DNA from: Candidatus Latescibacterota bacterium
GTDB lineage: Bacteria > Latescibacterota > UBA2968
NCBI GenBank assembly: GCA_965222605.1
Contig: OZ244960.1
Location: 6,080,001 to 6,144,000, forward strand
DNA length: 64,000 nt
Direction: 5' to 3'
Below the pieces are notes generated by a model. It was not told where the DNA came from and searched no databases. It saw only the letters and a program-made list of their open reading frames with translations. The position numbers and the translations under genes were made by a program. This document shows positions 6,425 to 23,880 of the stretch, one piece after another. Numbering within the stretch: position 1 is the first letter of the stretch; each line of letters begins with the position of its first letter.

Positions 6425-7876
6425 TCAATACAGCGGCCTGTAACGCAGGTTGCCGCCTTCTTCCTGTTGTTTTTTGTAATCGGCTTCAAGCGCCTCTCGC
6501 ACCCAGTATTGCGGTGCAGAGACGTAGTTCGATTGGTGTTCCTGGTTGTCGAGCCAGTGTCCGAGCAAGCGGGATTTGAGGTCGTGTTCAACATGGGAGA
6601 GATCCGCGTCGCCCGCGCGGTTGACAAGTTCGTCGGGATCGTTTTCGAGGTCGTAAAGTTCGGCAGATCCATCGGCGTAGTGCGCGTATTTGTAGCGTTC
6701 GGTTCGCACCATAACGCGACCGCCAATTTCGCAAAATGCAGCCTGTCGAATGGTCGCGGTGGGGTCTTTGAATAGTGGGCGAATGTCTTCGCCTTGAAGT
6801 GTACCGGGTGGTTTGGCATCGCAGGCGTGATAAAAAAGCGGGACGAGATCAATGATGCTGACAAGACCCGATGCGCGCTGATGGGCAGGGATATCGGGAC
6901 CGCGAATGATGAGGGGGACGCGAGACATGCAGTCGTAAAAGAAGCCTTTGAAGGGCATACCGTGATCGCCCAGTGCGTCGCCGTGATCGCTGGTGAAGAT
7001 GATGAGGGTATCGTCGAGTACGCGATGGGCTTCGAGTGCGGAGATGATTTTGCCAATGCCTTCGTCAATCAGGCTGATGTTGGCGTAGTAGTGCTCGCGC
7101 CATTTGCGGTAGTGCTCTGGCGTGGCCTGTGAATAGTCCAGGCGAAACATGGAGTTGGACAGGCTGCCGCTACCTCGGTCCCTTTGTGCGGGTGGTTTGT
7201 CGGCGAGTTCTTCTGCGGAGCCGACGGGTTCTGGAATGGGTGCGTCGGCATACATAAGGGCCATGTCTTCTGGGGGATCGTAGGGGTCGTGTGGTCCGGG
7301 AAAGCTGACCCAGGCGGCAAAGGGATCGCTCCCATTTTTTTGGAGCCATTCGGCTGCCTGGTCACCGACAAAGCCATCGACGTGGAATTTGCGGTCACGC
7401 GGTGTGATGGATGCGCCCAGATTTTCGTAATAACCCGGCAATGTGGTGGGGTGCGGCCGGTCGAGGCCGTGTGCAGCGAGAAATTGTACGTGGTGGTCGG
7501 GCAGGTATATGTGCCGTTTGTCTTCGGCCATGATGCGTTCGTCAAAGCCCTGAAGCGAATCCCAGGGATGAAAGTGCATTTTGCCAATGGCTGCGGTGCG
7601 TCGTCCAGTTTGTGCTATGACACGCGGCCATGTCGGCACATGATCGGGCAACCAGTTGCCATTGCCTGTCACGCCTGTCACGCTGGGGTATTGACCGCTC
7701 ATGATGGACGCGCGGCAAGGTACGCATACAGGGGATGGGACAATGCAATGGTCAAATACCATGCCTTCGCGTGCAAGACGGTCGAGGTTGGGGGTTTGCA
7801 TAAAGTCGAGGCCGTAACAGGGCAGGCTGTCCCAGCGCTGTTGATCGGTGGTAATTAAAAGGAGATTGCGAGCCAT
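6425..7876 (-). CDS. Sulfatase (FGly type)
   Basis: Start MARNLLLITTDQQ; CVPCRASIMSG (CxPxR), GKMH, GPHDP, FTSDHG, ELYDL. Confidence 0.93.
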   Translation of the reverse strand: MARNLLLITTDQQRWDSLPCYGLDFMQTPNLDRLAREGMVFDHCIVPSPVCVPCRASIMSGQYPSVTGVTGNGNWLPDHVPTWPRVIAQTGRRTAAIGKMHFHPWDSLQGFDERIMAEDKRHIYLPDHHVQFLAAHGLDRPHPTTLPGYYENLGASITPRDRKFHVDGFVGDQAAEWLQKNGSDPFAAWVSFPGPHDPYDPPEDMALMYADAPIPEPVGSAEELADKPPAQRDRGSGSLSNSMFRLDYSQATPEHYRKWREHYYANISLIDEGIGKIISALEAHRVLDDTLIIFTSDHGDALGDHGMPFKGFFYDCMSRVPLIIRGPDIPAHQRASGLVSIIDLVPLFYHACDAKPPGTLQGEDIRPLFKDPTATIRQAAFCEIGGRVMVRTERYKYAHYADGSAELYDLENDPDELVNRAGDADLSHVEHDLKSRLLGHWLDNQEHQSNYVSAPQYWVREALEADYKKQQEEGGNLRYRPLY

Positions 7877-8062
7877 AAAGTGCTCCAGAATAAAGGTGAG
7901 TTCAGGTGGATCAAAAGGACGGGACAAGATAGGATGGAGAAATAGGTATGGCAAAGTATTTCTGTTGGTCAGGTCAAAGGAATTGACGTTGACGCCAATA
8001 AGTTTTATGTTCAGGAATTGAACCCCACCCAATTTAGCGTCTGTTTGTCCAGGAGGCTTGCA

Positions 8063-9001: not shown

Positions 9002-9143
9002 CAAACGATGTATCCCAGAGTGTTGTGGCCCTTATACCACATAACCACCCCTCAAAAAAAAATCGTAACCCCCCCGGGAAAACCCAAAACCCCCACCCCT
9101 CTCCCACTTCTACACAAGAGGTAAAGATGTAAGGAGACAAGAG

Positions 9144-11154
9144 TTAAAAACGCCGGATAACTCGAAAACCGAAGCTGCCGTCCCGGAGAACGGTGGTAAA
9201 CCCGCTGCGATTCGCCGAACGCAAGTCCCCCGGTTCGCCGTACCACGAACCACCACGCAACACGCGATAACCGCAGGCCCCAGACTCCCACTCACTCCCG
9301 TCTGTAGGAGCACCCACATAGCTATCATTCCAACAATCTTCCACCCACTCCCACACATTACCGTGCATGTCGTGAACACCCCAACCATTCGCGCTGAAGC
9401 TACCCACTGGTGCCGTCTCATCATTATCCCACCGACTGCCGCAACCATCGCAATTGGAACGGTTGCGACCTATCTCGTTACCCCAGCTATACCGCGTATC
9501 CGTCCCTGCCCGTGCCACATACTCCCATTCTGACTCGCTCAGTAAACCATACCTGTGACCCGTCCTTGCTGACAACCAACGCACATAAGACTCTGCATCG
9601 TCCCAACTCACATTGATCACTGGCCGATTACCTCAACCCCAGCCTCTATCCTCAGGACGATGCCCACCGCATCCTCCTGCATTTACACATGCATCCCACT
9701 CAGAAAACGTCACTTCATACACACCCACGGCCAGAGGATACCCTATATTCACGCGATGACGAGGTCCCTCATCATCATGACGGCCATCCTCGCCACTGGA
9801 TGACCCCATCGTGAATGATCCCGACGGCACTACCACCATCTCTGGGCATTCCGCACAGTCCTTACGTCCAATAATGCTATCCAGACCCGCGCTCGCTTTC
9901 TTATGTCCAGGCTCCAATGCCAATACCGCCTGATACTTCTCCCACGCATTCGCACCAGCAGGACTCGTCAGACGATCTCGTGCAAGATCTTCCTCTGCAC
10001 CTGATAACAGCGCAGACACCCTCGCTGCGTGTTCTCCTTCCTGCGCTTTAAGACGCTGATTGGGCACATATTCATATTGATAATATGAGACACCCCCTAT
10101 CAACACTGCAAGCAGACAGGCAATCGTAGCAAATAATTTCCCTTTAGATTTTTTGGGAGATTCTGATCGGTCATCGGTGCGCTGATGCACGGGGGACATC
10201 GACTTTCTGGCGATCCTGTCGTTCCGGTGGGGGAGTGGGTGGAGGCTCTGTCGGAGGAATACTCACGCCGCTTCCTGTTTCTTCTCCCAGCGCAACACGC
10301 CATTCAGCGATACTTTGTGGACGATTCGCCTTATGTACCTGCAACGACCTATCTATCGCTGAAAGAAATTCGTCACTCGCTCGACCCGCACATTGCTCAA
10401 CCACTGGCATCAGCGCGTCTTGGACTACTCTTTCTGTCGCATCCTCCGGCACTTGACCGGTCAACGCATGGTAGCACACGGCTCCCAATGCATAGATGCC
10501 TGTCCAGGGTCCTTGATCACCTCGACTTGAATACTGCTCTATTGGCGCGTAGCCCGGTGTGATGATGGACGTAATCGAACGGCTCTTCGTACTTATCGCT
10601 TGCCGCGCTGCGCCAAAGTCCAGCAACACAGGCGAATGGTCCGCATCCCGTATGATGATATTGCCCGGCTTGATGTCCCGGTGCAAGAAATCAGCCCCAT
10701 GCACCACCTCCAAACCTTCGAGGATCGGATACAAAATGGTTTTGAGTTCTTCTTCCCTCAGTGTCCCTCTGCTTTGAAGAAACTTCGATAAGGTGTCACC
10801 CTCGGCATATTCCATCACAATATACGCCGTGCCATGTGCCTGAAAAAAATGATGCACTTTAATAATGTGGCGATGGTCAAACCGGGCTAAGGTGCGCGCT
10901 TCGTCCCAAAAGCGATCCAATCCCCACGCAAAATCCGAGGCGGCCTGGGAGGACAGCGGTACGACCGACATATCGTGATCACGAACCGCAAGACCTTCGG
11001 GCAAATACTCTTTGATTGCCACGGGAATATCCAGTGTCATATTCCAGCCGAGATAGGTAATGCCAAAGCCGCCTTGACCTAAGATGCGGTGAAATTCAAA
11101 ATCCTGTATGCGCGTGCCCTGTGGCAGTGCCAATCGGTGGTGTGATTCGTTCAT
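9144..11154 (-). pseudogene. Ser/Thr kinase-TM-helical-FGE/C-type lectin receptor, DGR target 2, disrupted
   Basis: LGQGGFG, AIKE, HRDIKP, DFG; frameshift at the G5 run 10191..10195 relative to the paralog; TM helix; [13 protein letters not shown]; in-frame TGA at 9633..9635 in GWG*GNRPV; RGGSW...GFRV at the end. Confidence 0.9.
9159..9203 (-). repeat. DGR variable region VR2 (portion alignable to the surviving TR)
   Basis: Versus TR 12360..12404: 13 mismatches at TR adenines and 1 non-A mismatch in 45 nt. Confidence 0.9.
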
Positions 11155-12170
11155 CTCGTTCCTTTCGATTGGGTTGTGGTGTCGGGGGCTGTTAATGAAT
11201 TCGCGGGGGTGTCCTCAGTCTTTTCCTTTGACGATTCCTCGCTCACTTTGCCTGTATCGGTCTGCTTTGATTGCTGAACGGGAGACCCTGTGAGCTTTTC
11301 TTTAAAGGCAGACCAAAGTCCCGACAAGCCTGTTTCTTGTTTTGATTCTTGCGTCTCTTCGCGCGGACTGGATTCCTCATCGGGAAGCATGCCCTCCCCG
11401 CAATCGGCTTCTGGGCGGTAGAGCAATACCGTGGTATTGTCCTGATTGGGCCGTCCGACCTCTTCCACAGCATGGATGAGTGCCTCGGCGACTTCTTCAA
11501 GCGGCGCGTCATGCTTGTTCTCTATAATACGCGCGATCTCTTCATCCTCAAGGGTCATTACACCATCACTGGCCAATAACAGGCGGTCGCTTTTCCGTAT
11601 CGCAATCGGTTGGGATGAGACATCTATCAGGTGAATCTCATCGCCCATGACCGCTGACCGCAGGGCATGGCGGTTGGAATCCGTCGCCGCTTCTTCCTCT
11701 GTCATGCGCCCGACCGCCACCAGGTTTGCAAGCACGGGTGCCATGGAGTGATCGGCATTGAGGCGGTGCAATTTGCCGTCGCGAAACAGCCACAAGGGAG
11801 AATCGCCCACGCTGATCCAGTCGAGTCCATGTTGTGAAATGACTGCTGCGACCACGGTTGACCCCATGCCCTTCAGTTCGGGATTTTCGTCCGTTGCTTC
11901 GGCAAGGGCGTCATTGGCTGCGGTGAGACAGGCGCGCAGACAATCCGGTATTGGCCCCTCTGTGCTGTGATAGGTCTCCACAAAGGTCTTGACCACCATT
12001 CTGCTGGCCGTATCGCCGCTGACGTGTCCCCCCATCCCATCGGCGAGCAATAACACTTCGCCTCCGTCAGTGTCGGGATCGCCGCGCTCAATCAGGCCGT
12101 AATCGTCCTCCTGATATTCACGTCCGCCGGGAATTTGTTGTGCGGCAAATCGGCCTTTTAGTCGATTCAT
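11151..12170 (-). CDS. PP2C-family Ser/Thr phosphatase
   Basis: GREYQED, LADGMGGH, MGST, SVGDS, DHS, LASDG, DNTT; stop overlaps the kinase start (ATGA). Confidence 0.93.
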   Translation of the reverse strand: MNRLKGRFAAQQIPGGREYQEDDYGLIERGDPDTDGGEVLLLADGMGGHVSGDTASRMVVKTFVETYHSTEGPIPDCLRACLTAANDALAEATDENPELKGMGSTVVAAVISQHGLDWISVGDSPLWLFRDGKLHRLNADHSMAPVLANLVAVGRMTEEEAATDSNRHALRSAVMGDEIHLIDVSSQPIAIRKSDRLLLASDGVMTLEDEEIARIIENKHDAPLEEVAEALIHAVEEVGRPNQDNTTVLLYRPEADCGEGMLPDEESSPREETQESKQETGLSGLWSAFKEKLTGSPVQQSKQTDTGKVSEESSKEKTEDTPANSLTAPDTTTQSKGTR

Positions 12171-12227
12171 GGTGTTCCTCCATAACGGCGCAAGACCGCT
12201 GCTGTTTCGTAAGCATCGTAAAATATA

Positions 12228-12270
12228 GTGGTGTCCCTTCCTCACAGGTGCGAGGCAAAAGGAACACCAC
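12228..12270 (-). other. Long hairpin downstream of the DGR template repeat
   Basis: Minus strand GTGGTGTTCCTT..CCTC..GAGG..AAGGGACACCAC. Confidence 0.55.
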
Positions 12271-12358
12271 TCCTACCTCATCATGACCGCCCCTGGACGC
12301 CCCGTTGCACTCCCGGCAACATCCTGGTGTTATCGGTTCTGGCTAACGAGCGTGCGGA

Positions 12359-12404
12359 CAACTCGAAAACCGTTATTGTTGTTCCGGTTTTCGGTGGTAT
12401 TCCT
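12359..12404 (-). repeat. DGR template repeat (TR), 3' remnant
   Basis: Minus strand AGG AAT ACC ACC GAA AAC CGG AAC AAC AAT AAC GGT TTT CGA GTT G; AAC-rich; matches both VRs except at adenines. Confidence 0.92.
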
Positions 12405-12406
12405 GT

Positions 12407-12747
12407 GTGCGGGCACAGGCGATGCGCCGCCGCAGGTCACGCTTGAGGATTTCGTGGTCAATAGCAGGGAAGTAGCGATAGAGGTCGCAGCGCAATACAT
12501 GGCGAAAACGGTCTCGGAATGTTTCGTAGCGGGCTATGGCGCGATGGGTTCCCTTGCCCTTGCGATTGGCATAGGTATCATAAATAAAGCCGCGTTCAAA
12601 AATCGGCTCGCATACCGCGCAAAAAGCGTGATGCACCACCCGATCTCGAAAGGGCGCAGCCGAGACGATGCGGTGCTTGGGGTCGAATATCTCGATCTCG
12701 GTGTATCGCCCCGGACGGTATTGACCTGTTTTGAGTTCCCGCTCTAA
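12407..12747 (-). pseudogene. DGR reverse transcriptase, internal fragment (~113 aa)
   Basis: ELKTGQYRPG.Y..I.I.DPK.R.VSAAPFRDRVVHHA, FIYDTYANRKGKGTHRA, VLRCDLYRYFPAIDHEIL; N-terminus and the YxDD-containing half are missing. Confidence 0.92.
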
Positions 12748-12913
12748 GGGATTCCAACACGTTGAGGGCAGTACTTTGTATGCGGTCGCCCAGTAGGAAC
12801 TTCTGATTGCGGGGAAATCGCTCCAGTGTAGGCACGAGCCACAGGATGAACTGGTAATGTGCCTCCAGTGCCGGCCCAGTTTGACGTGCGTTGATCCTTG
12901 ACAGATCATTCAA
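12746..12913 (-). pseudogene. avd: DGR accessory protein Avd, N-terminal half (56 aa)
   Basis: AGGAG RBS and TTG start; GPALEAHYQFILWLVPTLERFPRNQKFLLGDRIQ..ALNVLESL; joined out of frame to the RT fragment. Confidence 0.88.
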
Positions 12914-13043
12914 AAGATGGACTCCTGATAAAACACCCCTCAAAAAAAATCGTAAAACCCCCGGGAAAACCCAAAATCAACCCCCTCAAAATCCAAAACT
13001 CTCCCTCCCCCAAAAAAGAGGTAAAGAGGTAAGGATAAAAGAG

Positions 13044-14978
13044 TTAAAAACGCCGGGCAACTCGAAAACCGTAATCGTCGTACCGGTATACGGTGGGATT
13101 CCAGAAGCGATTCGCCGAACGCAAGAGCCTCGGATAGTAGTACCACGAACCACCACGCAACACGCGTCTATCGCAATTACCAGACTCCCACGCAGACCCA
13201 TCTATAGGTGCCCCCACATAGCTGTCATTCCAACAGTCTTCCACCCATTCCCACCCATTCCCGTGCATATCGTGAACACCCCAACCATTCGCCCTGAAAC
13301 TTCCCACAGATACGGTATTCCCTCTATACACACCTTTCCGACCAGTACCGTAGGTATAATTACCATTGTAATTCGCTTGATCCGTCGATATTGTTGTACC
13401 AAAATGAAAGGGCGTCTCCGTACCCGCTCGCGCCACATACTCCCATTCCGATTCACTCAGTAAACCATACCGGTGACCTGTCTTTTGAGATAACCAACGC
13501 ACATAAGACTGTGCATCGTCCCAACTCATGCACACCACAGGATGGCTATCCGCCTGAGAATAATTAGGATTACGCCAACTTATCCCTCTTCGATTCTCCC
13601 ATTTAATGGAGGAACTATTCCAAACATAACAAGAATTTCCCGCATTGTACCCCGTATCTGACACAAAACTGGAAAACTCTCTTCGCGTCACTTCATACAC
13701 ACCCACGGCCAGAGGATACCCTATATTCACGCGATGACGAGGGCCCTCATCGTCATAACGATCTTCCTCGCTACTGGGAGAACCCATCGTGAACGATCCC
13801 GACGGCACTACCACCATCTCTGGGCATTCCGCACAGTCCTTGAATTTCCTGCCTGCGCGATGAAGCTCTGCCTCGCGCGCTGCTGACAACCGATCTTCCA
13901 GTTCCGATTGGTAATAATAGACACCCCCTATCAGCACGGTAAGCAGGCAGGCTACTGTTGCAATTAATTTCCCTTTAGGTTTCTTGGAAGATTCTGAGCG
14001 GTCATCGGTGCGCTGATGCACGGAGGGAACAGCGACTTCCTCTCGATCCTGTTTTTTTGATGGGGGAGTGGTTGGAGGCTTTCTCGGGCCGCTTCCTGTT
14101 TCTTCTCCCAGCGCAACACGCCATTCAGCGATACTTTGCGGACGATTCTCCTTATGCACCTGCAACGCCCAATCTATTGCCGATAGAAATTCGACACGCG
14201 CTTGACCCGCGCATTGCTCAGACGCTGGAATGAGCGGATCAAGGGCTACTCTGTCTGGTGCCTCATCAGGACCCTCACCGGCCAAGGCGCGATAGCACAC
14301 CGCACCCAATGCATAAATGTCTGTACCCGGTCCTTGTTCTCCCCGACTCGAATACTGCTCTATTGGCGAGTAAGGTGGTGAGATAATCGCATCAATAGAC
14401 TGGCTCCTAATACCGATCGCCTGACGCGCTGCGCCAAAGTCCAACAGCACAGGCGAATTGTCCGCATCCCGTATGATGATGTTGAGAGGCTTGATGTCAC
14501 GGTGCAAGAAATCAACCCCATGCACCTCCTCCAAACCATCCAGTATCGGATACAAAATGGCTTTGAGTTCGGCTTCACTCAGCGGCCCTCTGCTTTGCAG
14601 AAACTTCGATAAGGTCTCGCCCTCGGCATATTCCATCACGATATACGCCGTGCCATGGGTTTGAAAAAAGCGATGCACTTTAATGATGTGGCGATGATCG
14701 AACCGGGCTAAGGTGCGCGCTTCGTCCAAAAAACGATCCAATCCCCACTCAAAATCATCTCGAAACTGACTCGCTTGTGGAGCTACGCTGTTGTCGCCTG
14801 TGCGCGTGGCTATATCCGATGGCAGGTATTCCTTAATCGCAACGGCTTTGTCCAGGTTGTGGTCAAAGCCGAGGTAGGTCATGCCGAAGCCGCCAAATCC
14901 GAGCACGCGCACCAGTTCGTATTCCTGGAGCCGATGCCCCTGGGGCAGGGCATTGAGGGGGTGGTGTGCGTCGTTCAT
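13044..14978 (-). CDS. Ser/Thr kinase-TM-FGE/C-type lectin receptor, DGR target 1, intact ORF
   Basis: LGFGGFG, AIKE, HRDIKP, DFG, DIYALG; TM LIATVACLLTVLIGGVYYY; [59 protein letters not shown]. Confidence 0.95.
   Translation of the reverse strand: MNDAHHPLNALPQGHRLQEYELVRVLGFGGFGMTYLGFDHNLDKAVAIKEYLPSDIATRTGDNSVAPQASQFRDDFEWGLDRFLDEARTLARFDHRHIIKVHRFFQTHGTAYIVMEYAEGETLSKFLQSRGPLSEAELKAILYPILDGLEEVHGVDFLHRDIKPLNIIIRDADNSPVLLDFGAARQAIGIRSQSIDAIISPPYSPIEQYSSRGEQGPGTDIYALGAVCYRALAGEGPDEAPDRVALDPLIPASEQCAGQARVEFLSAIDWALQVHKENRPQSIAEWRVALGEETGSGPRKPPTTPPSKKQDREEVAVPSVHQRTDDRSESSKKPKGKLIATVACLLTVLIGGVYYYQSELEDRLSAAREAELHRAGRKFKDCAECPEMVVVPSGSFTMGSPSSEEDRYDDEGPRHRVNIGYPLAVGVYEVTRREFSSFVSDTGYNAGNSCYVWNSSSIKWENRRGISWRNPNYSQADSHPVVCMSWDDAQSYVRWLSQKTGHRYGLLSESEWEYVARAGTETPFHFGTTISTDQANYNGNYTYGTGRKGVYRGNTVSVGSFRANGWGVHDMHGNGWEWVEDCWNDSYVGAPIDGSAWESGNCDRRVLRGGSWYYYPRLLRSANRFWNPTVYRYDDYGFRVARRF
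13058..13103 (-). repeat. DGR variable region VR1 (portion alignable to the surviving TR)
   Basis: Versus TR 12359..12404: 8 mismatches in 46 nt, all at TR adenines. Confidence 0.92.
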
Positions 14979-15013
14979 AGTATTTCCCTTGATGGTGTGT
15001 TCTTATTCCCGGG

Positions 15014-15718
15014 TTATTGTCCAGCACTTTCTTCTGTATCCTGCCAGTCAAACGCATCGCCGCACAGGGGCACAAAGCGAAGAATCGTATTGCCGATGCT
15101 AATATGACTCAGTGCGGGCAGTTCAGTCGGAATGAGCACAGGTTCGTCGTTGAGGTAGGTCAGGTTGGTGCCGCCGCCATGCTGTACGTAAAATTTCTTG
15201 CCCCGGGGATCGTAGGTGACAACCGCATGTCCACCGCGCGAAATTTGATCATCACCAAAATTGAGTTTGACGCGTGCGGTTTCTCCGCGCCCAATGGGAT
15301 TGGAGCCATAGCCCAATTGCATGGCCCTGCCTTTGCCCGGTCCTTCGACAATGGCCAACCATCCCACAACGGGATCATCCATGCCATCGGCTTTCTCTGC
15401 GCTTTCTTCCGACGATTGCGGACCTTTCTGCCTGGTACGACCACCTGTGTTTATGCGCGTGCGTTCTTCTTCATCCGAACGTCCCGCGTCGGTGGCTCGA
15501 CCACCGCCTTTCGGTACTGTTGGCCGTTGTTGCATTGGCTTTGTGGGATCCTCTAAACGTCCCCCACCGGGGGCTTGACCACCGCCCGGTGGCACTGACG
15601 GCCTGTTTGCGCCATCAGGTTGTGGCAGGGTATTCTCATCACGCCTGACATTCGGTGATGGAGTCGGCTTGCTTTTTTCTTCAACGATATTGCCATCGGG
15701 ATCGCGATAAACAGGCAT
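15014..15718 (-). CDS. FHA-domain protein with a Pro/Thr-rich disordered N-terminus
   Basis: VVGWL.IVEGPGKG..IGRG..D.QISR..HA..YD..TNLTYLN..IG.T.L.FVPLCG. Confidence 0.88.
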   Translation of the reverse strand: MPVYRDPDGNIVEEKSKPTPSPNVRRDENTLPQPDGANRPSVPPGGGQAPGGGRLEDPTKPMQQRPTVPKGGGRATDAGRSDEEERTRINTGGRTRQKGPQSSEESAEKADGMDDPVVGWLAIVEGPGKGRAMQLGYGSNPIGRGETARVKLNFGDDQISRGGHAVVTYDPRGKKFYVQHGGGTNLTYLNDEPVLIPTELPALSHISIGNTILRFVPLCGDAFDWQDTEESAGQ

Positions 15719-15730
15719 AACACTATCCTC

Positions 15731-16515
15731 CTATTTTTCATAGAGTCGGTTGATTAAATTATCCAAACAGTACTGCCCCGATTGATTCAGGGCCATTTCT
15801 TCTTTTTGTTGCACGATATGCAGGGCAAAAACCAACAGAGCCGATTGGATCAGGGCGAGTAAGGTCGTGTAAAAGGCCACGCTTAGTCGCCCGGTGATCT
15901 CCGCCAGTAGCGTTGGATCCTGGGGCTTTTCATTGCTTCCCGCATAATCCAGGGCAAAGGCGATCCCCACAACCGTGCCAATAAAGCCCAACGTGGGGAT
16001 CAGCCAGACGAGGTACCGCAACATGGTATATTTGAGTTCAAGCTCGTGCTGAAATAACTCCAGGGAGGAATTTAATAGGGAATTGGTCTGATTGACCGAT
16101 CTGCTCCCTTGAAATTGCAAAATGCAGCGCATGGTTAAGCGCTGTAAAAAGAATGTCCGTTCTCCCACCACTGGGCGCATCCTGTTGTAGAGAGAACCCA
16201 GGTCTTGCGCCCGCAACATGGTTGTTTCGTCTTCCGGCAGGTATCGCTTTGATAGTTGCGCCAATTCCAAATTAGATTGATTAAATTGCCCCCAAATCTC
16301 GCCACAGCCAATAAAAAACATAATCCACATGACATTTTGGATCGTAAACGGATAGAGGAAACTTTTCGTATGCCGGTCGAGCAAAAAAGCACCGGCTTGT
16401 GAATCCTTGCAGACAAAAAAATGCTCATTAACGCAATGGCGATAATGCCAATAACCGTACTAACCCCAAGTGCGATGAGGCGTTGATTTGTCTCTGCATT
16501 TTGACCCTGTGTCAT
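15731..16515 (-). pseudogene. MotA/TolQ/ExbB proton-channel family protein, frameshifted
   Basis: WLIPTLGFIGTVVGI and AFYTTL.AL motifs; the N-terminal TM (ATG 16515) is in a different frame, with the shift near 16400..16421. Confidence 0.82.
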
Positions 16516-16516
16516 G

Positions 16517-16909
16517 TTAGTCCTCGTTTTGAATGATTTCACCTGTTTCTATTTTGCGACGCACCGCCCCCTCGGGTAAGTCATTCGTCGGCGATTTCTC
16601 TTCGCTCGAATGCTCATCCCCTTTATTATCACCAGCACCTCGAGCGACCATAGCGATAAGTTGTGGTGCGGTCGTCTGATAGCGACCAAGCAAAATAACG
16701 TCCGTCGGACGAATAAAATCCTGCCTGATGGGGATCCATTCGCCATTTCGCGCAACATAACTTCCGCCGCTACTGCCGCAATCGGTCAGATAGAACGTCC
16801 CTTTTGCAGTCATGACCAACTCGGCGTGGATGCGCGAGACTGTGATGTCGTCAAGGCGAATATCCATGTCCGAATTGCGACCAATTTTATACGTGGAAAA
16901 GTTGGACAT
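16517..16909 (-). CDS. Small FHA-domain protein
   Basis: KIGR..DI.LDD.TVSR.HA..LTDCGSSGG. Confidence 0.88.
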   Translation of the reverse strand: MSNFSTYKIGRNSDMDIRLDDITVSRIHAELVMTAKGTFYLTDCGSSGGSYVARNGEWIPIRQDFIRPTDVILLGRYQTTAPQLIAMVARGAGDNKGDEHSSEEKSPTNDLPEGAVRRKIETGEIIQNED

Positions 16910-16925
16910 TTCGAATCCTTTCTGT

Positions 16926-17306
16926 TCAACCGAGTTTAGCACCTACAAGGTACCCGACGTTCTGCTCTGTCAACTGTATTAAAAAATCGATACTGCCAGA
17001 CATATCTACTACGATTACAAACTTTTTTGCTATGGTCTTGATACCCAGTAAAACAGATGTACTATCTTTCTGTACCGCTTTGCCTCCGCCTCCTGCAAGC
17101 TTGTCTTTCTCTCCTATGAGTTTATCTTTCTCTCCCATGAGTTTGTCTCTCTCTTGGATGAGTTTGGCTATTTCTTCAGCATCGCCGGTATTTGGAAAGT
17201 ATGGAAACAGGACAAAGGCAATGAGTATGAACGCGCCCATTGCCGAAGCGAAGAGATCGAGCGCAGACATGCTGAAGATGTTCAGTTCTCGGTTGCGGGA
17301 TTTCAT
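16926..17306 (-). pseudogene. MotB/ExbD-like membrane anchor, coiled coil and truncated vWA domain
   Basis: IFSMSALDLFASAMGAFIL (conserved TM Asp), EKDKL heptads, FVIVVDMSGS (MIDAS DxSxS); ends ~20 aa later. Confidence 0.68.
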
Positions 17307-17321
17307 TACGAGGCACTCCTG

Positions 17322-18719
17322 TTAAAATTTTGAAACCATGACCTCCAGACCACCCAGCGCAACGGTAGCGCCATAGTCTAACTGCGCTAGGCGAAATGGA
17401 GACAAGCGATGACCATTCAAGAACGTTCCATTACTCGAGTACAGATCTTCGATATAAAATTGGTCATCCTGAACTGTAATTCTCAAATGGCGCCGGGATA
17501 CCTGTTCATCATGGATAACTTCATCTACCAGATCGGGATGCCTGCCCAGTGAAAGTCCCGGGCGTTGCTCTGCAAATTTTTCTGGCGATAGCGCGATGTG
17601 AATGCGGTTGCCCTGACCGTCAAATCCGGCCAGCACCAGTCCACGTGTTGGGCGTTGTTTTTCTGGTTGTTGTTTTTCTACTTGTTGTTGAACCGCGCCA
17701 TCGCGTTCTCGCCTTCTGATAGGGCGGCTCATCTGATCTATGACTTGAATGATCTGTTGCCGGGGTCTTCTTAAGCCAAGTAACAGGGCTGCCAATGTCA
17801 AACTGCCCAATAATATGCCCCAGACAAGAGTTTGCTGGCTCGCTTCTTCTGCACGACGCTTTGCTTCATCTGCCTTTTGTTGCGCCTTTTCCATTTCCCG
17901 GTTTGCTTCTTCTGATCGGCGTTTGGCTTCTTCTGCCTGACGCTTGGTCTCTTCCGCCTCTTGAAGTGCCTCTTCCGATCTTCCAGAATCTCCATTACCG
18001 ACATTTGACAAACACGGACTGTTCTCTGATTGGAAGGGAATAGTGTGATATTGCAAGAGCCTTACCAATTCCTGAATATGAGAGGCATAGAAAGCACCTG
18101 GTTTCTCTCCTTCGATTCCCTGAGTATTCACGCCAACCGCTCTGCCACAGTCATCCAACAAAGGCCCACCGCTGTTGCCGGGATTGATTTGTGCACTATG
18201 GTGAAGAATGCGTAATTGTTGATTTCTACCCTCAAGTCCCCAGGGAGCCGTATAATCTCGGCTAATGTCGCCACTTCGCGCTGTTGTATCTTTGGCTTTC
18301 TCGTGTATATCGCCAACACTGGGATAGCCGAGAGAATACACCTTTTGTAATTTTTTGATTGGCGCGAGCGAAAGAGTAATCGGCGAAAGATTTATATTTG
18401 GGACATGCAGGATTGCCAGGTCGCGTTGAAAGTCTCTGACGACCACTTTCGCATCATACGATGTACTGGAATTTGTTGGCACTACCACGATTTTAAGGCC
18501 ATTCTCAATCACATGGTAGTTTGTCGCAATATAACCACTACAGTTTATCACAAATCCAGAACCTGTACCGGTCCCTTGACTTGTCTCTGTTACAATACGC
18601 ACGACACTCTTCTCAATTACATCAATAGTATCGACCAGCGCGGCGGCTGCATCGTGCCCGTGAAGTAGAAATGCGAGAACAAGACCGGCAAGACGCCAAT
18701 ATTTGAGTTTGTTTGGCAT
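17322..18719 (-). CDS. Signal peptide-trypsin-like serine protease-coiled coil-TM-FHA protein
   Basis: GSGF, TNYHV, DLAIL, INPGNSGGPL (complete triad); TM; LGR..VSRRH..EDL.SSNGTFLNG. Confidence 0.92.
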   Translation of the reverse strand: MPNKLKYWRLAGLVLAFLLHGHDAAAALVDTIDVIEKSVVRIVTETSQGTGTGSGFVINCSGYIATNYHVIENGLKIVVVPTNSSTSYDAKVVVRDFQRDLAILHVPNINLSPITLSLAPIKKLQKVYSLGYPSVGDIHEKAKDTTARSGDISRDYTAPWGLEGRNQQLRILHHSAQINPGNSGGPLLDDCGRAVGVNTQGIEGEKPGAFYASHIQELVRLLQYHTIPFQSENSPCLSNVGNGDSGRSEEALQEAEETKRQAEEAKRRSEEANREMEKAQQKADEAKRRAEEASQQTLVWGILLGSLTLAALLLGLRRPRQQIIQVIDQMSRPIRRRERDGAVQQQVEKQQPEKQRPTRGLVLAGFDGQGNRIHIALSPEKFAEQRPGLSLGRHPDLVDEVIHDEQVSRRHLRITVQDDQFYIEDLYSSNGTFLNGHRLSPFRLAQLDYGATVALGGLEVMVSKF

Positions 18720-20075
18720 TTTTTATTCTCTGATCAAACGCACCTGAAAAACAACAGGCCCCAACTCGAGTTGATCGTTGTTTTGCAATACCACTGGTTC
18801 GCGCGGGTTGAGCGGGCTTCCATTGATCCGGGTGCCATTCAGGGCGTTCAGATCTTCTGCATATAGAGCCTCGGCGGTATAGACAAGCCTGACGTGCTCG
18901 CGGGATACGGCTTCGTGGTCGATAATATATTCGGCGTTGGCAGGGCTTCTTCCAAGCGTGACACCTGAAGACAGGGCCAATGCCGAGATATTCAACACAA
19001 AGGATTGGCCCGCGTTGTCCCGACCTTCTAATAGACATCTGTAAGGCGCGGGCTGTGGTGTCTGCGCGGCGGCTTGTTGCGCGGCTTCAGCCTTTTGTTC
19101 TGCTTCGCTCAAGCGAGAAGAACTCGTCTGCAATTGCGCCTTTTTCCTGCGCGCAAACATGAACCAGCCGAGAAGCACAAGGAGTATCAGGGCAGCCCCG
19201 GACACAATGGCCCATTTCAAATGTTGCGATGTTTCCTCAAGCGCCTGTATGATACTATCCTGTACTACTTTTCGTCTGGCGATACTATCCTGTATTGCTT
19301 TTTCCAGGGAATCGGTCCTTGCCTGTGCTCTTTTGAGGCGATCTTGTTCGGCTTGGAGACGGTCTTTTTCTGCCTGGAGACGATCTTCTGCCGCCCTTGC
19401 CGTCTTTTTTATAGAATCTTCTCGCGCTCGTGTTAAAGAATCGGTCTTTGCCTGTGCCCGTCTTAAACTGTCTTCTCGCGCTTCTGCGCGTTCAATAGCA
19501 CTCAAGCAGGCTTCTTCTTCTACTGTATGTGCAATTTCCCGGTCTTTGAGCACGGTAATGATATCGCCGCTGCGCAAGGCAAAAATTATTCCTCTGGGTT
19601 CCGCATCTCTCCGAAAGGGCCAGCGTGCGCTTTCCGGGTCCGGGAGGTTGATGGCGATGACATCCCCACATTCATTGAACAGGGGCATGCCGAATGCACT
19701 GGAAGTGATCAGGGCATTGTGCTGTAGCAGATGCACTACGGGATCGTCCGGGTTTTTGCCCGGCACATCCTGGTATGCACCAATGGTACCGCGAGCAATC
19801 TGGACACTATCCTGGGGAATAAACTTCAAAGTTTCCACACTCCGGCCCACATCAGCCCCTTGTTCGGACAAGTTGAGAGGCGGTAAATCCAGACCCTGCG
19901 CTTGCAATAAGGCGAGGTTCATTTCCCGGCTGGTAAAGATCTGCTGCGACGATAGTTCGGCACCGGTTTTCAGGGCCAGTACAGATAGTCTGTTTGCGTC
20001 CGATAGAAGGTGTGCATTTGTCAGCACATATCCCTCTGCATTAACGACAAAGCCGCTTCCTTCAGCTATTATTCT

Positions 20076-21123
20076 ACGTGATGTGTGACTTTAAATAGCG
20101 AAAAAGAGGTTCCTCGGCTATCTTGAATTGTTCACTAAACAAGAAGCCATTCAACGAAAGGAACCTCCGATGTATAATTTAGACCTTTTTGTCATTGCAA
20201 TCTACTGTTTTATTGAAGACGAACTCTATCCGGCTTTCTGTAAGGTGCATGGCAAGCCCCGTCGGGCAGGCTTTGACCCCGGTTTAAGTGATGCCGAATG
20301 CCTCACCATAGAAATCGTGGGTCACTTTTTGGGATATTCAAGCCAGAAAAAACTTTATGAGCAGATGAAAGAACACTTCATAGATTGGTTTCCCACTTTG
20401 AAAGACCGTCCTGCCTTTGTGCGTCAATGTGCCAATTTGTGGGTTGTCAAGATGTGGATGCAACAGCGGATTGTTGCCAGCTTGGAAGGGCATCAGGCAT
20501 CCTGCCAGATCATAGATACGCTACCCTTACCGATCTGTAAACTGGCAAGGCGACATTATCGCAAGATATTTACAAGAGAGCCAGTCTTTGAGTTCCCTCC
20601 CCCCTCAAAAGGCTTTTGTGCCGCCAAAAGTGAAGCATATTTTGGCTTTAAGGGTGGCCTTAGGATCACGGATTATGGTCTTATTGTCCACGCGCCGATC
20701 CTGCAAGCGTATGGACACGACAAGAACTGCCGAGACGCACTCCTGAATGGTACGATGGGAGAGACAACCGTCTTGGCAGATGCGGCATTTATGGACTTGG
20801 ACTGGCAAAAAAGGTGTTTTGATACCTACCGCATACGCATAAAGACACCCTTAAAGTCCAATATGAAAGAAAATCCTGAACGCACCCCTTTCATTTTGCC
20901 CAAAGCGAAGAAAGCCACAAGGCGATTAGTCGAAACCGTTTATGCACAATTGACAGAACGTTTACATATTGCCCGCATGAAAGTGCGAGATGCATGGCAC
21001 TTATTGAACCTGTGGCATACCAAAATCTTAACCCATACCATGTGTGTCTTTCTCAATATTATCAATTACAGAGACCCGCTGGATTTTGACGGTCTCGTAA
21101 AATTTTGAAGTCACACATCGCGT
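20076..21123 (+). mobile_element. IS982-family insertion sequence
   Basis: Terminal IRs ACGTGATGTGTGACTTTAA / TTGAAGTCACACATCGCGT; 8-bp target duplication ATTATTCT at 20068..20075 and 21124..21131; 1048 bp long. Confidence 0.92.
20128..21108 (+). CDS. IS982-family DDE transposase (start may be ATG 20170)
   Basis: LSDAECLTI, FPTL.DR..F.R, IIDTLPLPIC, YFGFK, LAD, RRLVETVYAQL. Confidence 0.9.
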   Translation: MFTKQEAIQRKEPPMYNLDLFVIAIYCFIEDELYPAFCKVHGKPRRAGFDPGLSDAECLTIEIVGHFLGYSSQKKLYEQMKEHFIDWFPTLKDRPAFVRQCANLWVVKMWMQQRIVASLEGHQASCQIIDTLPLPICKLARRHYRKIFTREPVFEFPPPSKGFCAAKSEAYFGFKGGLRITDYGLIVHAPILQAYGHDKNCRDALLNGTMGETTVLADAAFMDLDWQKRCFDTYRIRIKTPLKSNMKENPERTPFILPKAKKATRRLVETVYAQLTERLHIARMKVRDAWHLLNLWHTKILTHTMCVFLNIINYRDPLDFDGLVKF

Positions 21124-21268
21124 ATTATTCTGTTATTTTTGTACGCACGCACCCGCACAATGCTTTCAGATACGACATCGACATCTATTTCTGCAAACAC
21201 AGGACTGAGGAAAAGGAATACCACGAGATGCACAAACAGAGAAACACGCATGGCAATCTCCTATACCA

Positions 21269-22068: not shown

Positions 22069-23880
22069 ATGGATGTGTTAGTGGATGAAGTCAAATTGCC
22101 GTCGCACTTAGATCGTCTGACAGATACGGCTCTGGATCTCAGGCGCGTACAGGGTATGGTGCGCGTTGGTCCAGAGGAGTTATTTGTGATACTGAGTGGC
22201 TCCTTGTTCAAGTTGACGACAGAGAGTGCCGTCCTCGAACCCGTGGATGCATTTGATTCTGTGACGCGCTTATGGCCGGCCGATGAAAATTGCGCGTTGG
22301 TCGAATCGGAAGGCGCGCTATGGCGGGTTGATCTGGATGGTACAAAGGGGCGTTTGCTCACTATTCCCAGGGGGACAATTTCCTGTGATGTCAAGTGGAG
22401 TGTGCGGGGATTGATCGTAGGTGCTCTTGTGGATCGCCGTGCGCCTGTGGATCCCAAAGTACCTTATTTTTATCCGACACAGAGAGAAAAGGTCACGCTG
22501 TGTCGATATGCTTCAATCGAGGGTTGGCACGATCTTGCCGATGTGCCAGAAGGATGCGGTAGTTTGAGTATGTGTCGGTATGGCCGTCGAATCGCGTGGA
22601 GAGAATCCCTTAATGTGGTTCCCGAAGAAGCGCAGCGGGGGGAGTTTTACGGTTTTGATTTGAATACAAATGAGGTACGGAAGCTGACCGAGGGCGCGGG
22701 CAAAGTCGGGCGCGTGGTGGTGGCCTCGGATGGCTCTGCGTTGCTTTACGAAGCCAATCACGAGGCAGAGTATCCCATTACAACGCATACAGATTTGTGG
22801 TGGTTGTCATGGGATGGCAGCGAACGGGTGAATCTCACAGAGGGTGGGCGCTGTATTGCGCGCTTTGGTTGGGGACCCCGCGAAAAAACCGCCTGGGTAT
22901 CGTTTGTGGAGGGGGTGGAAACGCAGACGGAAGTGCTGGCTTTGGACGGCACGCCAGAAGGGACATTTGGCGACCTGGACGCGGTATCAGATATTGTGTG
23001 GATGCCCGACGGTCTGGCTATTTTTGAGACCGAAAACGCGGAGCGATTCCCCGCAATTTGGACGGGAACGCGCCGTGTGCCCTTGCCTCAGCCAGCGAAT
23101 TACGAAGATTTGCGCGTTTTAGAAATGGAATGGGAAGCTCCCGATGGCATGGAGATCGAAGGGGTGCTCTACGAAGCAGATCGCCTGATAGGCTCTGCAC
23201 CGTTGCTGGTTTCGGCACACGGCGGGCCTGCCGCGCCAGTGGAAAATGTGCGGAGTGAGGCGGTCCGATATCGCCATTTGCTGCGGGCGGGCTACCGGGT
23301 TTTTCGTCCGGCATTTCGGGGATCTCTGGGGTTTGGAGACAATTTCGCACGGAGCAATATCGGATGCCAGGGGCGGGCTGATCTCGAGGATATTATTTCG
23401 GGTGTTGATTTTTTGATTGAAGAGGGGCTTGCATTAAAAAACCGGGTGGGTATTTTCGGTGGGTCTTATGGGGGATATATGACGTTGCGGGCACTAACTG
23501 TGACGGACCGATTCCATGCCGGTGTCGCGCTTTTCGGTTTTATCGACAACCGGCGGATGACCTTAGAGACGGGTGATTTTACGTATGAGACAGAGTATTT
23601 GGAACCGCTATCGTGGCCGATTACAGAGCGTACGCGCGGGGGCGATGTGTTTCCCAATTTGGGTGCGATTCGCACACCGCTTCTGTTGTTGCACGGCGAC
23701 CAGGATCCGATTTGTCCGCTGTCGGAATCCAAAGTCACCTGTCGCGCGCTAGAAGCACTGGGGGTGCCGGTGGGCCTTGTGGTGTATCCGGGCGAGGGCC
23801 ACGGATTTCGGAAAGAAAAAAATCGCCGAGATAGTGCGCGGCGGACACTGGCCTGGTTTTTGAATTATCTGCCGCCGTGA
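22069..23880 (+). CDS. S9 family (prolyl oligo/acylaminoacyl) peptidase
   Basis: HGGP, RGSLGFG, GGSYGG, HGDQD, YPGEGHGF; N-terminal propeller region. Confidence 0.92.
   Translation: MDVLVDEVKLPSHLDRLTDTALDLRRVQGMVRVGPEELFVILSGSLFKLTTESAVLEPVDAFDSVTRLWPADENCALVESEGALWRVDLDGTKGRLLTIPRGTISCDVKWSVRGLIVGALVDRRAPVDPKVPYFYPTQREKVTLCRYASIEGWHDLADVPEGCGSLSMCRYGRRIAWRESLNVVPEEAQRGEFYGFDLNTNEVRKLTEGAGKVGRVVVASDGSALLYEANHEAEYPITTHTDLWWLSWDGSERVNLTEGGRCIARFGWGPREKTAWVSFVEGVETQTEVLALDGTPEGTFGDLDAVSDIVWMPDGLAIFETENAERFPAIWTGTRRVPLPQPANYEDLRVLEMEWEAPDGMEIEGVLYEADRLIGSAPLLVSAHGGPAAPVENVRSEAVRYRHLLRAGYRVFRPAFRGSLGFGDNFARSNIGCQGRADLEDIISGVDFLIEEGLALKNRVGIFGGSYGGYMTLRALTVTDRFHAGVALFGFIDNRRMTLETGDFTYETEYLEPLSWPITERTRGGDVFPNLGAIRTPLLLLHGDQDPICPLSESKVTCRALEALGVPVGLVVYPGEGHGFRKEKNRRDSARRTLAWFLNYLPP

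Follow-up and report, generated by a model that had tools for sequence, protein, structure and literature searches.

Gene content and decay of the cluster

The window analyzed here is a stretch of 64,000 nucleotides (nt), bases 6,080,001-6,144,000 of the single-contig, 6.34-Mb genome of a Candidatus Latescibacterota bacterium. Between positions 9144 and 21251, its minus strand carries a cluster of genes for Hanks-type receptor kinases, a PP2C phosphatase, small FHA proteins, two trypsin-like proteins with FHA tails (TrypA and TrypB), a TolQ/ExbB/MotA-like channel subunit and the partner of the latter, a protein with a transpore helix and a domain of the von Willebrand factor A (vWA) type. This gene set is a real, widespread unit that is apparently undescribed, and the window holds a decaying, broken copy of this conserved, multi-phylum set, which is probably an envelope signaling module.

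Open reading frame (ORF) calls and Pfam matches bore out the gene content, strand and order given by a first-pass annotation of this DNA. Every gene that it named is present in the order in which it was listed, the intergenic gaps measure from a few to ~40 bases, and position 21251 is exactly the Met start codon of TrypA. The listing did not convey the state of the genes, however. TrypA is split by an insertion sequence (IS), the vWA gene is reduced to a stub of 126 amino acids (aa), the TolQ-like gene is frameshifted, kinase 2 is broken, and the diversity-generating retroelement (DGR), listed as avd, reverse transcriptase (RT) and template repeat (TR), persists as scraps. The annotation had inferred a complete sensor-effector circuit, which does not hold for this copy: at least four genes and the DGR are broken, and the genome contains neither an RT nor a second copy of the TolQ-like gene. 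The features are listed below with Pfam E-values in parentheses; TM denotes a transmembrane helix and VR a variable repeat, and G009 and G017 are related genomes.

21117-21251, minus strand: 5′ fragment of TrypA, with a signal-peptide-like N-terminus and the beginning of the dead trypsin domain, severed by the IS; tblastn places N-terminal residues of the orthologues from G009 and G017 here, and the frame is that of 18726-20090.
20075-21124, plus strand: IS element inserted in TrypA, with a DDE transposase ORF at 20128-21108 (Pfam DDE_Tnp_1_3, DDE_Tnp_1).
18723-20090 (ORF 18723-20027), minus strand: 3′ part of TrypA, with a dead trypsin fold, a coiled region, a TM and a cytoplasmic FHA domain (Trypsin_2 1.3e-10, FHA 3.6e-15).
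17322-18719, minus strand: TrypB, intact, 465 aa, with a signal peptide, an HtrA-like active trypsin domain, a coiled region, a TM and a cytoplasmic FHA domain (Trypsin_2 3.9e-26, FHA 4.7e-17).
16926-17306, minus strand: remnant, 126 aa, of an ExbD/TolR-like transpore-helix-vWA gene, found by tblastn with the 306-aa G009 orthologue; no Pfam vWA match.
16517-16909 (ORF 16517-16942), minus strand: FHA1, a small soluble FHA protein (FHA 5.8e-14), whose gene overlaps the start of the TolQ-like gene.
15731-16542 (ORF 15731-16384), minus strand: TolQ/ExbB/MotA-like proton-channel subunit, frameshifted (MotA_ExbB 4.4e-11).
15014-15718, minus strand: FHA2, with a disordered, Pro/Gly-rich N-terminal half and, at the C-terminus, an FHA domain (FHA 1.3e-6).
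13044-14978, minus strand: receptor kinase 1, intact, 644 aa, with a Hanks kinase domain, a TM, an outside FGE/CLec domain and VR1 at the 3′ end, ~13047-13172 (Pkinase 2.2e-34, FGE-sulfatase 6.4e-60).
12355-12909, minus strand: DGR remnant, comprising Avd residues 14-68 (12725-12889), RT residues 63-176 (12406-12747) and the 3′ end of the TR (12355-12403).
11151-12245, minus strand: PP2C Ser/Thr phosphatase, intact (PP2C_2 2e-13, SpoIIE 2e-10); the real start is probably near 12170, where the orthologue alignment begins.
9144-11154, minus strand: receptor kinase 2, a pseudogene in three pieces (Pkinase at 10171-11154, FGE-sulfatase at 9633-10199 and 9144-9620), with VR2 at the 3′ end, ~9147-9266.

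Lesions were located by mapping intact orthologues onto the window with tblastn. The IS in TrypA is 1050 bp long, with terminal inverted repeats of 21 nt (20075-20095 and 21104-21124, 90% complementary), and is one of six copies in the genome, five of which are at least 99.9% identical. Contigs of two other public runs, X3 and X8, join 20066 to 21123 and 20063 to 21127. An IS-free form of TrypA hence exists and the insertion is polymorphic, which indicates that the element was recently active. The vWA gene has undergone an in-frame loss of ~138 codons, corresponding to residues 148-285 of the 306-aa G009 orthologue; residues 1-147 and 286-306 match in one frame, and the stub retains the N-terminal hydrophobic helix, the linker and the first residues of the metal-ion-dependent adhesion site (MIDAS; DMSGS motif). 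The frame of the TolQ-like gene changes near 16408-16420, beside a T7 homopolymer and between orthologue residues ~36 and ~43. Kinase 2 has both a frameshift at a C5 homopolymer near 10190 and an in-frame TGA codon at 9633-9635.

The two frameshifts lie at homopolymers, yet assembly error was rejected as their cause because contigs of runs X1, possibly the source sample, and X7, from a different study, have the same sequence without gaps in the region of the TolQ-like gene. The X1 contigs match 15728-17019 with zero differences, and the X7 contig covers 14709-17871 with 4 differences in 3183 positions and no gap. Runs X1 and X3 likewise show the kinase-2 frameshift at 10190 unaltered; in run X8, the kinase-2 stop codon reads CGA and two extra G are found at 10190. 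The contigs of these runs indicate that the lesions of the motor genes and the DGR are common to near-identical strains and that those of TrypA and kinase 2 are more recent. As its DGR is dead and its motor genes are broken, the window copy is probably non-functional, and its chief interest is as an illustration of decay in such a locus and in the DGRs of a genome.

Genes of the sulfatase and S9 prolyl-oligopeptidase families flank the cluster (6425-8032 and 22069-23880). The cluster of the closest relative, G017, has the same flanking genes, which indicates that the locus is syntenic and not recently arrived.

Conservation and variation of the module

The gene set is conserved as a unit in other genomes, as the first-pass interpretation demanded. 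A search with TrypB returned full-length orthologues in 9 of 20 genomes of the same genus, a fragment in a tenth, and an orthologue in 1 of 16 genomes of the sister family. In the loci of ten relatives, tblastn found TrypA, TrypB, the vWA gene, FHA1, the TolQ-like gene, FHA2 and one to six kinases in line, usually accompanied by PP2C. Decay is seen in some relatives too, the vWA gene being split in G010 and lost in G016.

For a wide scan, one genome per species was searched with two peptide patterns taken from nine TolQ-like orthologues, which gave 147 confirmed relatives; 80 loci were kept. ORFs called from them were searched with profiles that had been built by iteration from G009 proteins, and parts were counted within 10 kb. 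We defined the full set as TolQ-like, vWA, trypsin-FHA, PP2C, kinase and soluble FHA genes within that distance. The parts were distributed over the 80 loci as follows: TolQ-like, 80; vWA, 75; kinase, 55; FHA2 (by tblastn, just downstream of the TolQ-like gene), 50; PP2C, 49; soluble FHA, 47; trypsin-FHA, 43; and kinase-FGE fusion, 14. A total of 41 loci carry the full set, among them 40 of the 50 that lie outside Gemmatimonadota, spread over at least seven phylum- or class-level groups.

Latescibacterota: full set in 21 of 25 loci.
Gammaproteobacteria: 10 of 13.
Acidobacteriota: 4 of 5.
Binatia: 2 of 2.
Rhodothermales: 2 of 2.
Alphaproteobacteria (Nioella): 1 of 1.
Deltaproteobacteria-type: 0 of 2 (short contigs).
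Gemmatimonadota: 1 of 30.

The block whose order is most constant across phyla is FHA1, TolQ-like, FHA2 and PP2C. In the cultured Aliiglaciecola lipolytica E3, the module genes abut or overlap over 10.6 kb, in the manner of an operon. A profile search of 1.84 billion cluster representatives retrieved 237 TolQ-like clusters (E ≤ 1e-30); the family spans a wide phylogenetic range without being large. TolQ-like proteins ~80% identical to those of Latescibacterota also occur on contigs labeled Gammaproteobacteria, which include a complete 3.77-Mb chromosome, and on contigs labeled Gemmatimonadota (L039, L041, L044, L045 and L105). This cross-phylum identity, like the likeness of the G016 and Terriglobia RTs described below, is due either to horizontal transfer among lineages that co-occur or, in the case of the short contigs, to mis-binning.

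The TolQ-like protein belongs to a distant branch of the MotA/TolQ/ExbB proteins, as its profile has no relevant sequence match among Protein Data Bank (PDB) chains and no NCBIfam family matches it. Pfam MotA_ExbB (PF01618) scores 43.1 bits for the C-terminal piece in the window and 39.5 bits for the G009 orthologue, with a cut-off of 22.9. For an AlphaFold2 model of an orthologue (mean predicted local distance difference test score [pLDDT] 86.8), the top Foldseek matches are TolQ, ExbB, MotA, PomA and ZorA chains, with probabilities of 0.96-1.00, TM-scores of 0.33-0.61 and no E-value ≤ 0.001. The PxxGFxGTxxGI motif of the second TM, the AFxTT motif of the third and a cytoplasmic YPFTIQN loop are invariant in 40 sequences. 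A complex prediction for the TolQ-like protein with FHA1 scored 0.00 in two runs, made without controls, and thus argues neither for nor against their binding.

The vWA partner starts with basic residues and a nearly invariant N-terminal helix that carries an invariant Asp, with the N-terminus inside according to charge. This Asp and the first Asp of MIDAS are invariant in 36 orthologues, and the linker varies, being coiled-coil, Pro-rich or Cys-Pro-rich. The C-terminal domain of an orthologue model (pLDDT 87.8) matches vWA/integrin I domains with Foldseek E-values down to 2e-8; a sequence search of the protein against PDB chains returned coiled-coil noise only. No exbD/tolR/motB-like gene was found among the cluster ORFs scanned with Pfam, and the Asp of the partner helix may be equivalent to the proton-binding Asp of ExbD/TolR, by analogy with predicted TolQ-like/vWA motors (PMC12204202) and not from an alignment to ExbD. 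Nearly every locus has a single vWA ORF. A second vWA protein, found in Parabeggiatoa (L062), has a TM-FHA tail and no N-terminal match to the vWA profile of the module.

The term FHA-tailed proteases used by the first-pass annotation fits TrypB, which keeps its triad (H69, D100 and S183) and has a TM at 298-316. It is less apt for TrypA, where the catalytic Asp is replaced by Asn and Ser by Phe and where five Lys/Arg follow a TM at residues 273-291. The best PDB sequence matches of TrypB are Deg/HtrA proteases. Neither protein has a PDZ domain and all NCBIfam HtrA/Deg models remain far below their cut-offs; canonical HtrA was rejected for both, which are HtrA-like by fold only. Of 72 trypsin-domain ORFs, 32 retain His-Asp-Ser, 39 lack the Ser (22 reading His-Asn-Phe and the others having lost more) and one is a fragment. 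Both kinds occur together in 27 loci, the dead one alone in 12 and the active one alone in 4, and the dead trypsin paralogue is the more widely kept "protease" of the module. Eight of the 12 loci with only a dead trypsin encode a protein with a signal peptide, an HExxH peptidase domain, a TM and an FHA domain. In six of these, from Aliiglaciecola (three loci), Halioxenophilus, Cellvibrionaceae and Terriglobia, the peptidase is a Pfam M4 enzyme; in two Vicinamibacteria loci, the HExxH motif alone was seen. The strongest comparative argument is that an unrelated active peptidase bears the same TM-FHA tail, which suggests that the system depends on the tail and not on any one peptidase family. 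This non-homologous replacement by M4 metallopeptidases also lends support to the idea of a coupling, through the FHA tails, between outside peptidases and the kinases.

Both kinases match Pkinase (E-values of 2.2e-34 and 2e-36 for kinases 1 and 2), and the VAIK, HRDIKP and DFG motifs are visible in their translations. In the relatives, the outside domains of the kinases are FGE, PDZ plus FGE or ankyrin repeats. The ankyrin repeats of two receptor kinases in locus L024 (10410-12566 and 16231-18264) follow the TM, in the position of FGE; ankyrin repeats outside the cytoplasm are unusual. The module kinase of Aliiglaciecola, of 295 aa, has no TM. The PP2C orthologue of G009 matches a Stp1/IreP-type NCBIfam model at 3.7e-42, below the cut-off. 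FHA1 orthologues lie directly upstream of the TolQ-like gene in 43 cases, and an alignment of 26 sequences shows no variation at their GR and SxxH residues. The N-terminus of FHA2 (15674-15718) carries a conserved short motif, MPVYR.PDG.., a diverged form of which is found in FHA2 of Aliiglaciecola and at the N-termini of several G016 receptor kinases (L023/L111). This motif may be a docking peptide shared by the two kinds of protein.

Hydrophobicity and positive-inside charge rules placed the kinase domains and every FHA domain on the cytoplasmic side and the trypsin, vWA and FGE domains on the other, in agreement with the requirement of the first-pass interpretation that kinase and FHA domains share one side of the membrane. 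The trypsin-FHA proteins have a signal-peptide-like start, one TM, a basic stretch and then FHA. The N-termini of the kinases are inside, with basic residues before the single TM; in kinase 1, six Lys/Arg precede a TM at 338-356.

The DGR of the window was analyzed by tblastn with the intact Avd and RT of G016. Residues 14-68 of the 132 of Avd remain (bAvd Pfam E-value 0.0084, 17 bits against a cut-off of 40), together with residues 63-176 of the 375 of RT, and the YVDD region is gone. Pfam RVT_1 (PF00078) has no match in the 6.34-Mb genome, and control genomes do match. A genome search with the G016 RT and Avd revealed no further RT piece and two more Avd scraps only. These lie outside the window, at ~2,697,941-2,698,827 and 5,842,893-5,844,946, beside FGE-domain genes and without an RT; a diverged IS copy is close to the second. 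The genome seems to have lost all its DGRs while retaining 19 FGE-sulfatase domain matches. The last ~49 nt of the TR survive (TR/VR repeat family D7). VR1 differs from this remnant at 8 of 49 positions; as read by eye from the alignment, 7 of these are TR adenines, and the differences of VR2 are mostly at TR adenines. The FGE-sulfatase domain at the C-terminus of kinase 1 carries the VR, as in DGR targets. A functional DGR in the window was rejected: adenine-specific TR/VR variation and a CLec/FGE target are present, and an intact RT core and a full Avd are missing.

G016 has a DGR with an intact, 132-aa Avd and a 375-aa RT with YVDD. In each of three kinase VRs, 18-19 of the 33 adenines of its TR are changed, as are 0-1 of the 80 remaining positions, a pattern suggesting that this DGR acts, or acted until recently, on several of the module's receptor kinases. 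Full RT and Avd genes adjoin the module in 2 of 90 relatives' loci, those of G016 and of a Terriglobia metagenome-assembled genome whose RT is 75% identical, and remnants are found in G029 and the window. The DGR is an occasional, optional accessory that decays readily, and not the core of the module. This frequency, and that of kinase-FGE fusions (14 of 80 loci), contradict the first-pass view of an operon built around DGR-varied receptors.

Further repeats were observed near these elements. Each of the two kinase-FGE genes has, behind its stop codon, a 55-nt element with many runs of A and C (9043-9097 and 12930-12984, 76% alike, family D9), and in G016 a similar repeated stretch, visible as antisense ORFs of 93-98 aa, follows each VR; the 55-nt element may be a DGR target-recognition region. 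Downstream of the module in G013 (L027, ~9700-20000), there are repeat-derived ORFs in which a peptide recurs, together with an RT-like match (25% identity); this looks like a CRISPR-Cas region with an associated RT.

Proposed signaling logic and alternative readings

Hanks kinases write phosphothreonine marks, PP2C phosphatases erase them, and FHA domains bind them. TolQ/ExbB/MotA pentamers, together with an Asp-bearing partner helix, turn ion flow into movement, and vWA/MIDAS domains bind protein ligands. We lean toward the view, with some reservation, that the parts of the module form one signaling system of this general logic, broken in the window. Gene content and order, conservation, domain folds, catalytic residues and lesions have been shown, and comparison backs the logic; the mechanism, each protein-protein contact, the direction of the signal and its target are inferred.

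An intact module would comprise one to six receptor Hanks kinases, each with an inside kinase domain, one TM and a variable outside sensor, with a soluble kinase in some lineages. Binding of a ligand to the outside sensor would activate the kinase, and kinases and PP2C would write and erase phosphothreonine marks in the cytoplasm. The putative readers of these marks are the two small soluble FHA proteins, whose genes flank the TolQ-like gene, and the cytoplasmic FHA tails of the single-pass (pseudo)peptidases, which would hold outside either a dead HtrA-like trypsin fold or an active peptidase, HtrA-like serine or M4. The TolQ/ExbB-like protein and its partner, an ExbD/TolR-like transpore helix joined by a linker to a periplasmic vWA/MIDAS domain, are predicted to form a proton-driven 5:2 motor. 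Recruited or activated by the marks, the FHA-tailed (pseudo)peptidases and the FHA-flanked motor would come together, so that the motor-borne vWA domain and the peptidase could act on a periplasmic, outer-membrane or foreign target. PP2C would then reset the system, and the optional DGR would vary the FGE sensor.

A more specific version, which we regard as speculative and on present evidence unlikely, has the intact module as a proton-powered, phosphorylation-gated envelope machine that would capture, pull and cut, for defense or for dealings with a host. The variable receptor, rewritten by a DGR in some lineages, would recognize an extracytoplasmic molecule of foreign or host origin; the signal from the kinase would assemble the TolQ-like/vWA motor and the FHA-tailed peptidases at the spot of recognition; and the vWA domain would grip and strain the target for cleavage by the tethered peptidase. 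Such a machine would be an extracytoplasmic counterpart of ATP-driven unfoldase-protease machines, with a receptor diversification reminiscent of adaptive immunity.

Several observations weigh against a single signaling system. Within 10 kb, 29 of the 30 Gemmatimonadota loci have the TolQ-like and vWA genes alone, mostly on opposite strands, which indicates that the motor pair can exist without neighboring kinase, FHA or PP2C genes; their TolQ-like proteins also retain the invariant cytoplasmic YPFTIQN loop. Two loci of Desulfobacteraceae type, on short contigs, have no trypsin-FHA gene. One Latescibacterota locus (L036) and three of Gammaproteobacteria (L039, L044 and L045, the last from a complete chromosome) have neither vWA nor trypsin-FHA genes, and a fourth and a fifth Latescibacterota subtype (L052-L055) have one trypsin-FHA gene or none. 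Since the 80 loci were selected by means of the TolQ-like protein, the part counts are conditional frequencies that are silent on parts occurring without it. Topology comes from the simple rules given above and not from a trained predictor, and is heuristic only.

The signal might also flow in the opposite direction, a possibility that we consider doubtful. The dead trypsin fold or the active peptidase would then be the sensor, in the way that DegS senses envelope peptides; the FHA tails and the soluble FHA proteins would report to the kinase and PP2C or scaffold them; the motor would be an envelope tether or a Tol-Pal-like maintenance device merely tuned by phosphorylation; and the outside domains of the kinases would be secondary inputs. 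A dead trypsin fold kept across phyla does resemble a binding domain, DegS and HtrA are among the best matches, and the Aliiglaciecola kinase, with no TM, cannot itself sense the outside. However, most modules have arrays of kinases with elaborate outside domains, some of them varied by a DGR, which points to the kinases as sensors. Moreover, the PDZ domain that reads peptides in DegS is absent from the trypsin-FHA proteins scanned with Pfam, and the active peptidase, whose place an unrelated M4 enzyme bearing the same tail can take, looks more like an exchangeable output than like a conserved sensor.

Another reading concerns the window alone, where receptor kinase 1, PP2C, TrypB, FHA1 and FHA2 might still work as a reduced circuit without a motor, the fossil VR1 providing a binding site that no longer varies. 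All five ORFs are intact, with their catalytic or binding motifs preserved, and the presence of the motor frameshift, the vWA deletion and the DGR remnant in the contig from another study suggests that this state persists in more than one sample. We nonetheless deem it improbable: no parts are retained in more of the TolQ-selected loci than the TolQ-like and vWA genes, and lesions are still accumulating (the polymorphic IS, and a kinase-2 nonsense codon and frameshift that are absent from other runs), a pattern consistent with relaxed selection on the whole locus.

Last, the cluster might juxtapose two unrelated systems, one made of the DGR, the kinase-CLec proteins and PP2C and the other of the motor, the FHA proteins and the peptidases. 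To our knowledge, FHA domains have no ligand besides phosphothreonine, and the second system would hence need a kinase. Solitary motor pairs in Gemmatimonadota, and DGR-targeted kinase-CLec proteins that occur elsewhere without such neighbors, as far as the main text of the survey goes (PMC7517822), speak for such a division, but it is very unlikely given that a kinase and PP2C accompany the TolQ-like gene in 55 and 49 of the 80 loci, including lineages without a nearby FGE or DGR, and that the block most constant in order joins PP2C to the TolQ-like gene and its two FHA neighbors.

If the parts do cooperate in one signaling system, the cell would have a way to control from inside peptidases of the periplasm, where ATP is absent, and DGR-varied receptor kinases would gain a defined downstream machine. 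The module is present in the cultured and harmless marine bacteria Aliiglaciecola, Halioxenophilus and Nioella, which makes these proposals directly testable.

Relation to described systems

The threonine phosphorylation pathway of the H1 type VI secretion system (T6SS) of Pseudomonas aeruginosa, in which PpkA, PppA and Fha1 gate the assembly of an envelope machine after an extracytoplasmic signal, resembles the module in its membrane Hanks kinase, PP2C and FHA protein. Identity was rejected: there are no T6SS genes here and the TagH-type FHA model is far below its cut-off. The machine under control would instead be the TolQ-like motor with the tethered peptidases. In magnetosomes, MamE and MamO pair an active HtrA-like protease with a membrane-anchored paralogue of degenerate triad, without FHA tails. 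The pairing of active and dead forms is alike in TrypB and TrypA, but the corresponding NCBIfam models score 30-55 bits against cut-offs of 800 and there is no magnetosome context. The anti-phage system Zorya likewise uses a 5:2 motor of MotA/ExbB fold beyond motility and transport, and a ZorAB structure is among the fold matches of the TolQ-like protein. It was discarded as an identity because the PADLOC matches to ZorA (E-value 2.8e-4) and ZorB (9.7e-4) are marginal, eight module proteins gave no match to ZorC, ZorD or any other Zorya model, and the long ZorA tail is missing.

The TerY-P triad is an operon of vWA, Hanks kinase, FHA and PP2C-type genes. Proteins of these four kinds are likewise co-encoded in Deinococcus DRA0331-0334 (bioRxiv 10.64898/2026.01.23.701218). 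Judged by the abstract of that preprint, this locus apparently differs from the module in lacking a TolQ-like gene, FHA-tailed peptidases and, on its vWA protein, a transpore helix. The Esr threat-sensing pathway of Actinomycetales, linked by experiments to defense against epibionts (bioRxiv 2026, PMC13622651), shares with the module a variable surface sensor, a vWA protein, a Ser/Thr kinase and phosphatase, and a threonine-phosphorylated FHA output. In that preprint, Esr is described with a MoxR AAA+ ATPase, a cytoplasmic vWA protein and an output by transcription or Esx secretion, whereas in the module vWA is periplasmic on a proton-channel helix and FHA is found on peptidase tails. Pfam scans of the cluster ORFs of the window and of G009 yielded no MoxR/AAA family member, and an Esr-type or MoxR-vWA ternary identity was rejected on this ground, as both kinds of system encode a MoxR AAA+ ATPase with the vWA protein.

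Cyanobacterial DGR kinase-CLec proteins (BMC Genomics 2020, PMC7517822) are similar in their N-terminal Ser/Thr kinase, their C-terminal FGE/CLec domain with a VR and their adenine-specific variation, as far as the main text describes them. That text and two others (PMC7159879 and PMC10907252) do not mention MotA or ExbB. FHA is absent from the main texts of PMC7517822 and PMC10907252 and appears three times in that of PMC7159879 (eLife), as a sporadic effector domain only. The DGR and conflict systems presented there use cytoplasmic MoxR-vWA, STAND NTPases or caspase-like effectors.

The module matched no characterized system in NCBIfam, where no model reaches its cut-off, in PADLOC, where matches are generic at the domain level or marginal, or in the literature. 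The full combination, of which the first-pass annotation knew no description, is undescribed in the full-text literature searched, which lies outside subscription journals, and the supplementary tables of PMC12204202, PMC7159879 and PMC10907252 may list such loci. The claim of an undescribed combination appears to hold for the full set, but not for the pair of the TolQ-like and transpore-helix-vWA proteins, which had been predicted in 2025 to form 5:2 motors of unknown function (Mol Biol Evol 2025, PMC12204202). As reported in the main text of that study, a TolQ homologue without a tolR/exbD neighbor is accompanied by a vWA partner whose N-terminal helix bears the proton-binding Asp of MotB/ExbD/TolR, and a vWA partner is likewise present here in 75 of 80 loci. 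The two sets differ in that the vWA genes of that study are mostly heterologous pairs, in Proteobacteria and Verrucomicrobia, whereas the module has one vWA gene. Its main text never uses the word "kinase", and the sole match to "FHA" is FhaC; the comparison is one of descriptions and not of sequences to the Idiomarina prototype. The novelty of the module apparently lies in a combination of known kinds of parts, of which only the TolQ-like/vWA pair is in print, as a prediction. If the parts cooperate, the module would provide the first functional context for these predicted motors and the first case of a 5:2 proton motor under the control of Hanks kinases, PP2C and FHA proteins.

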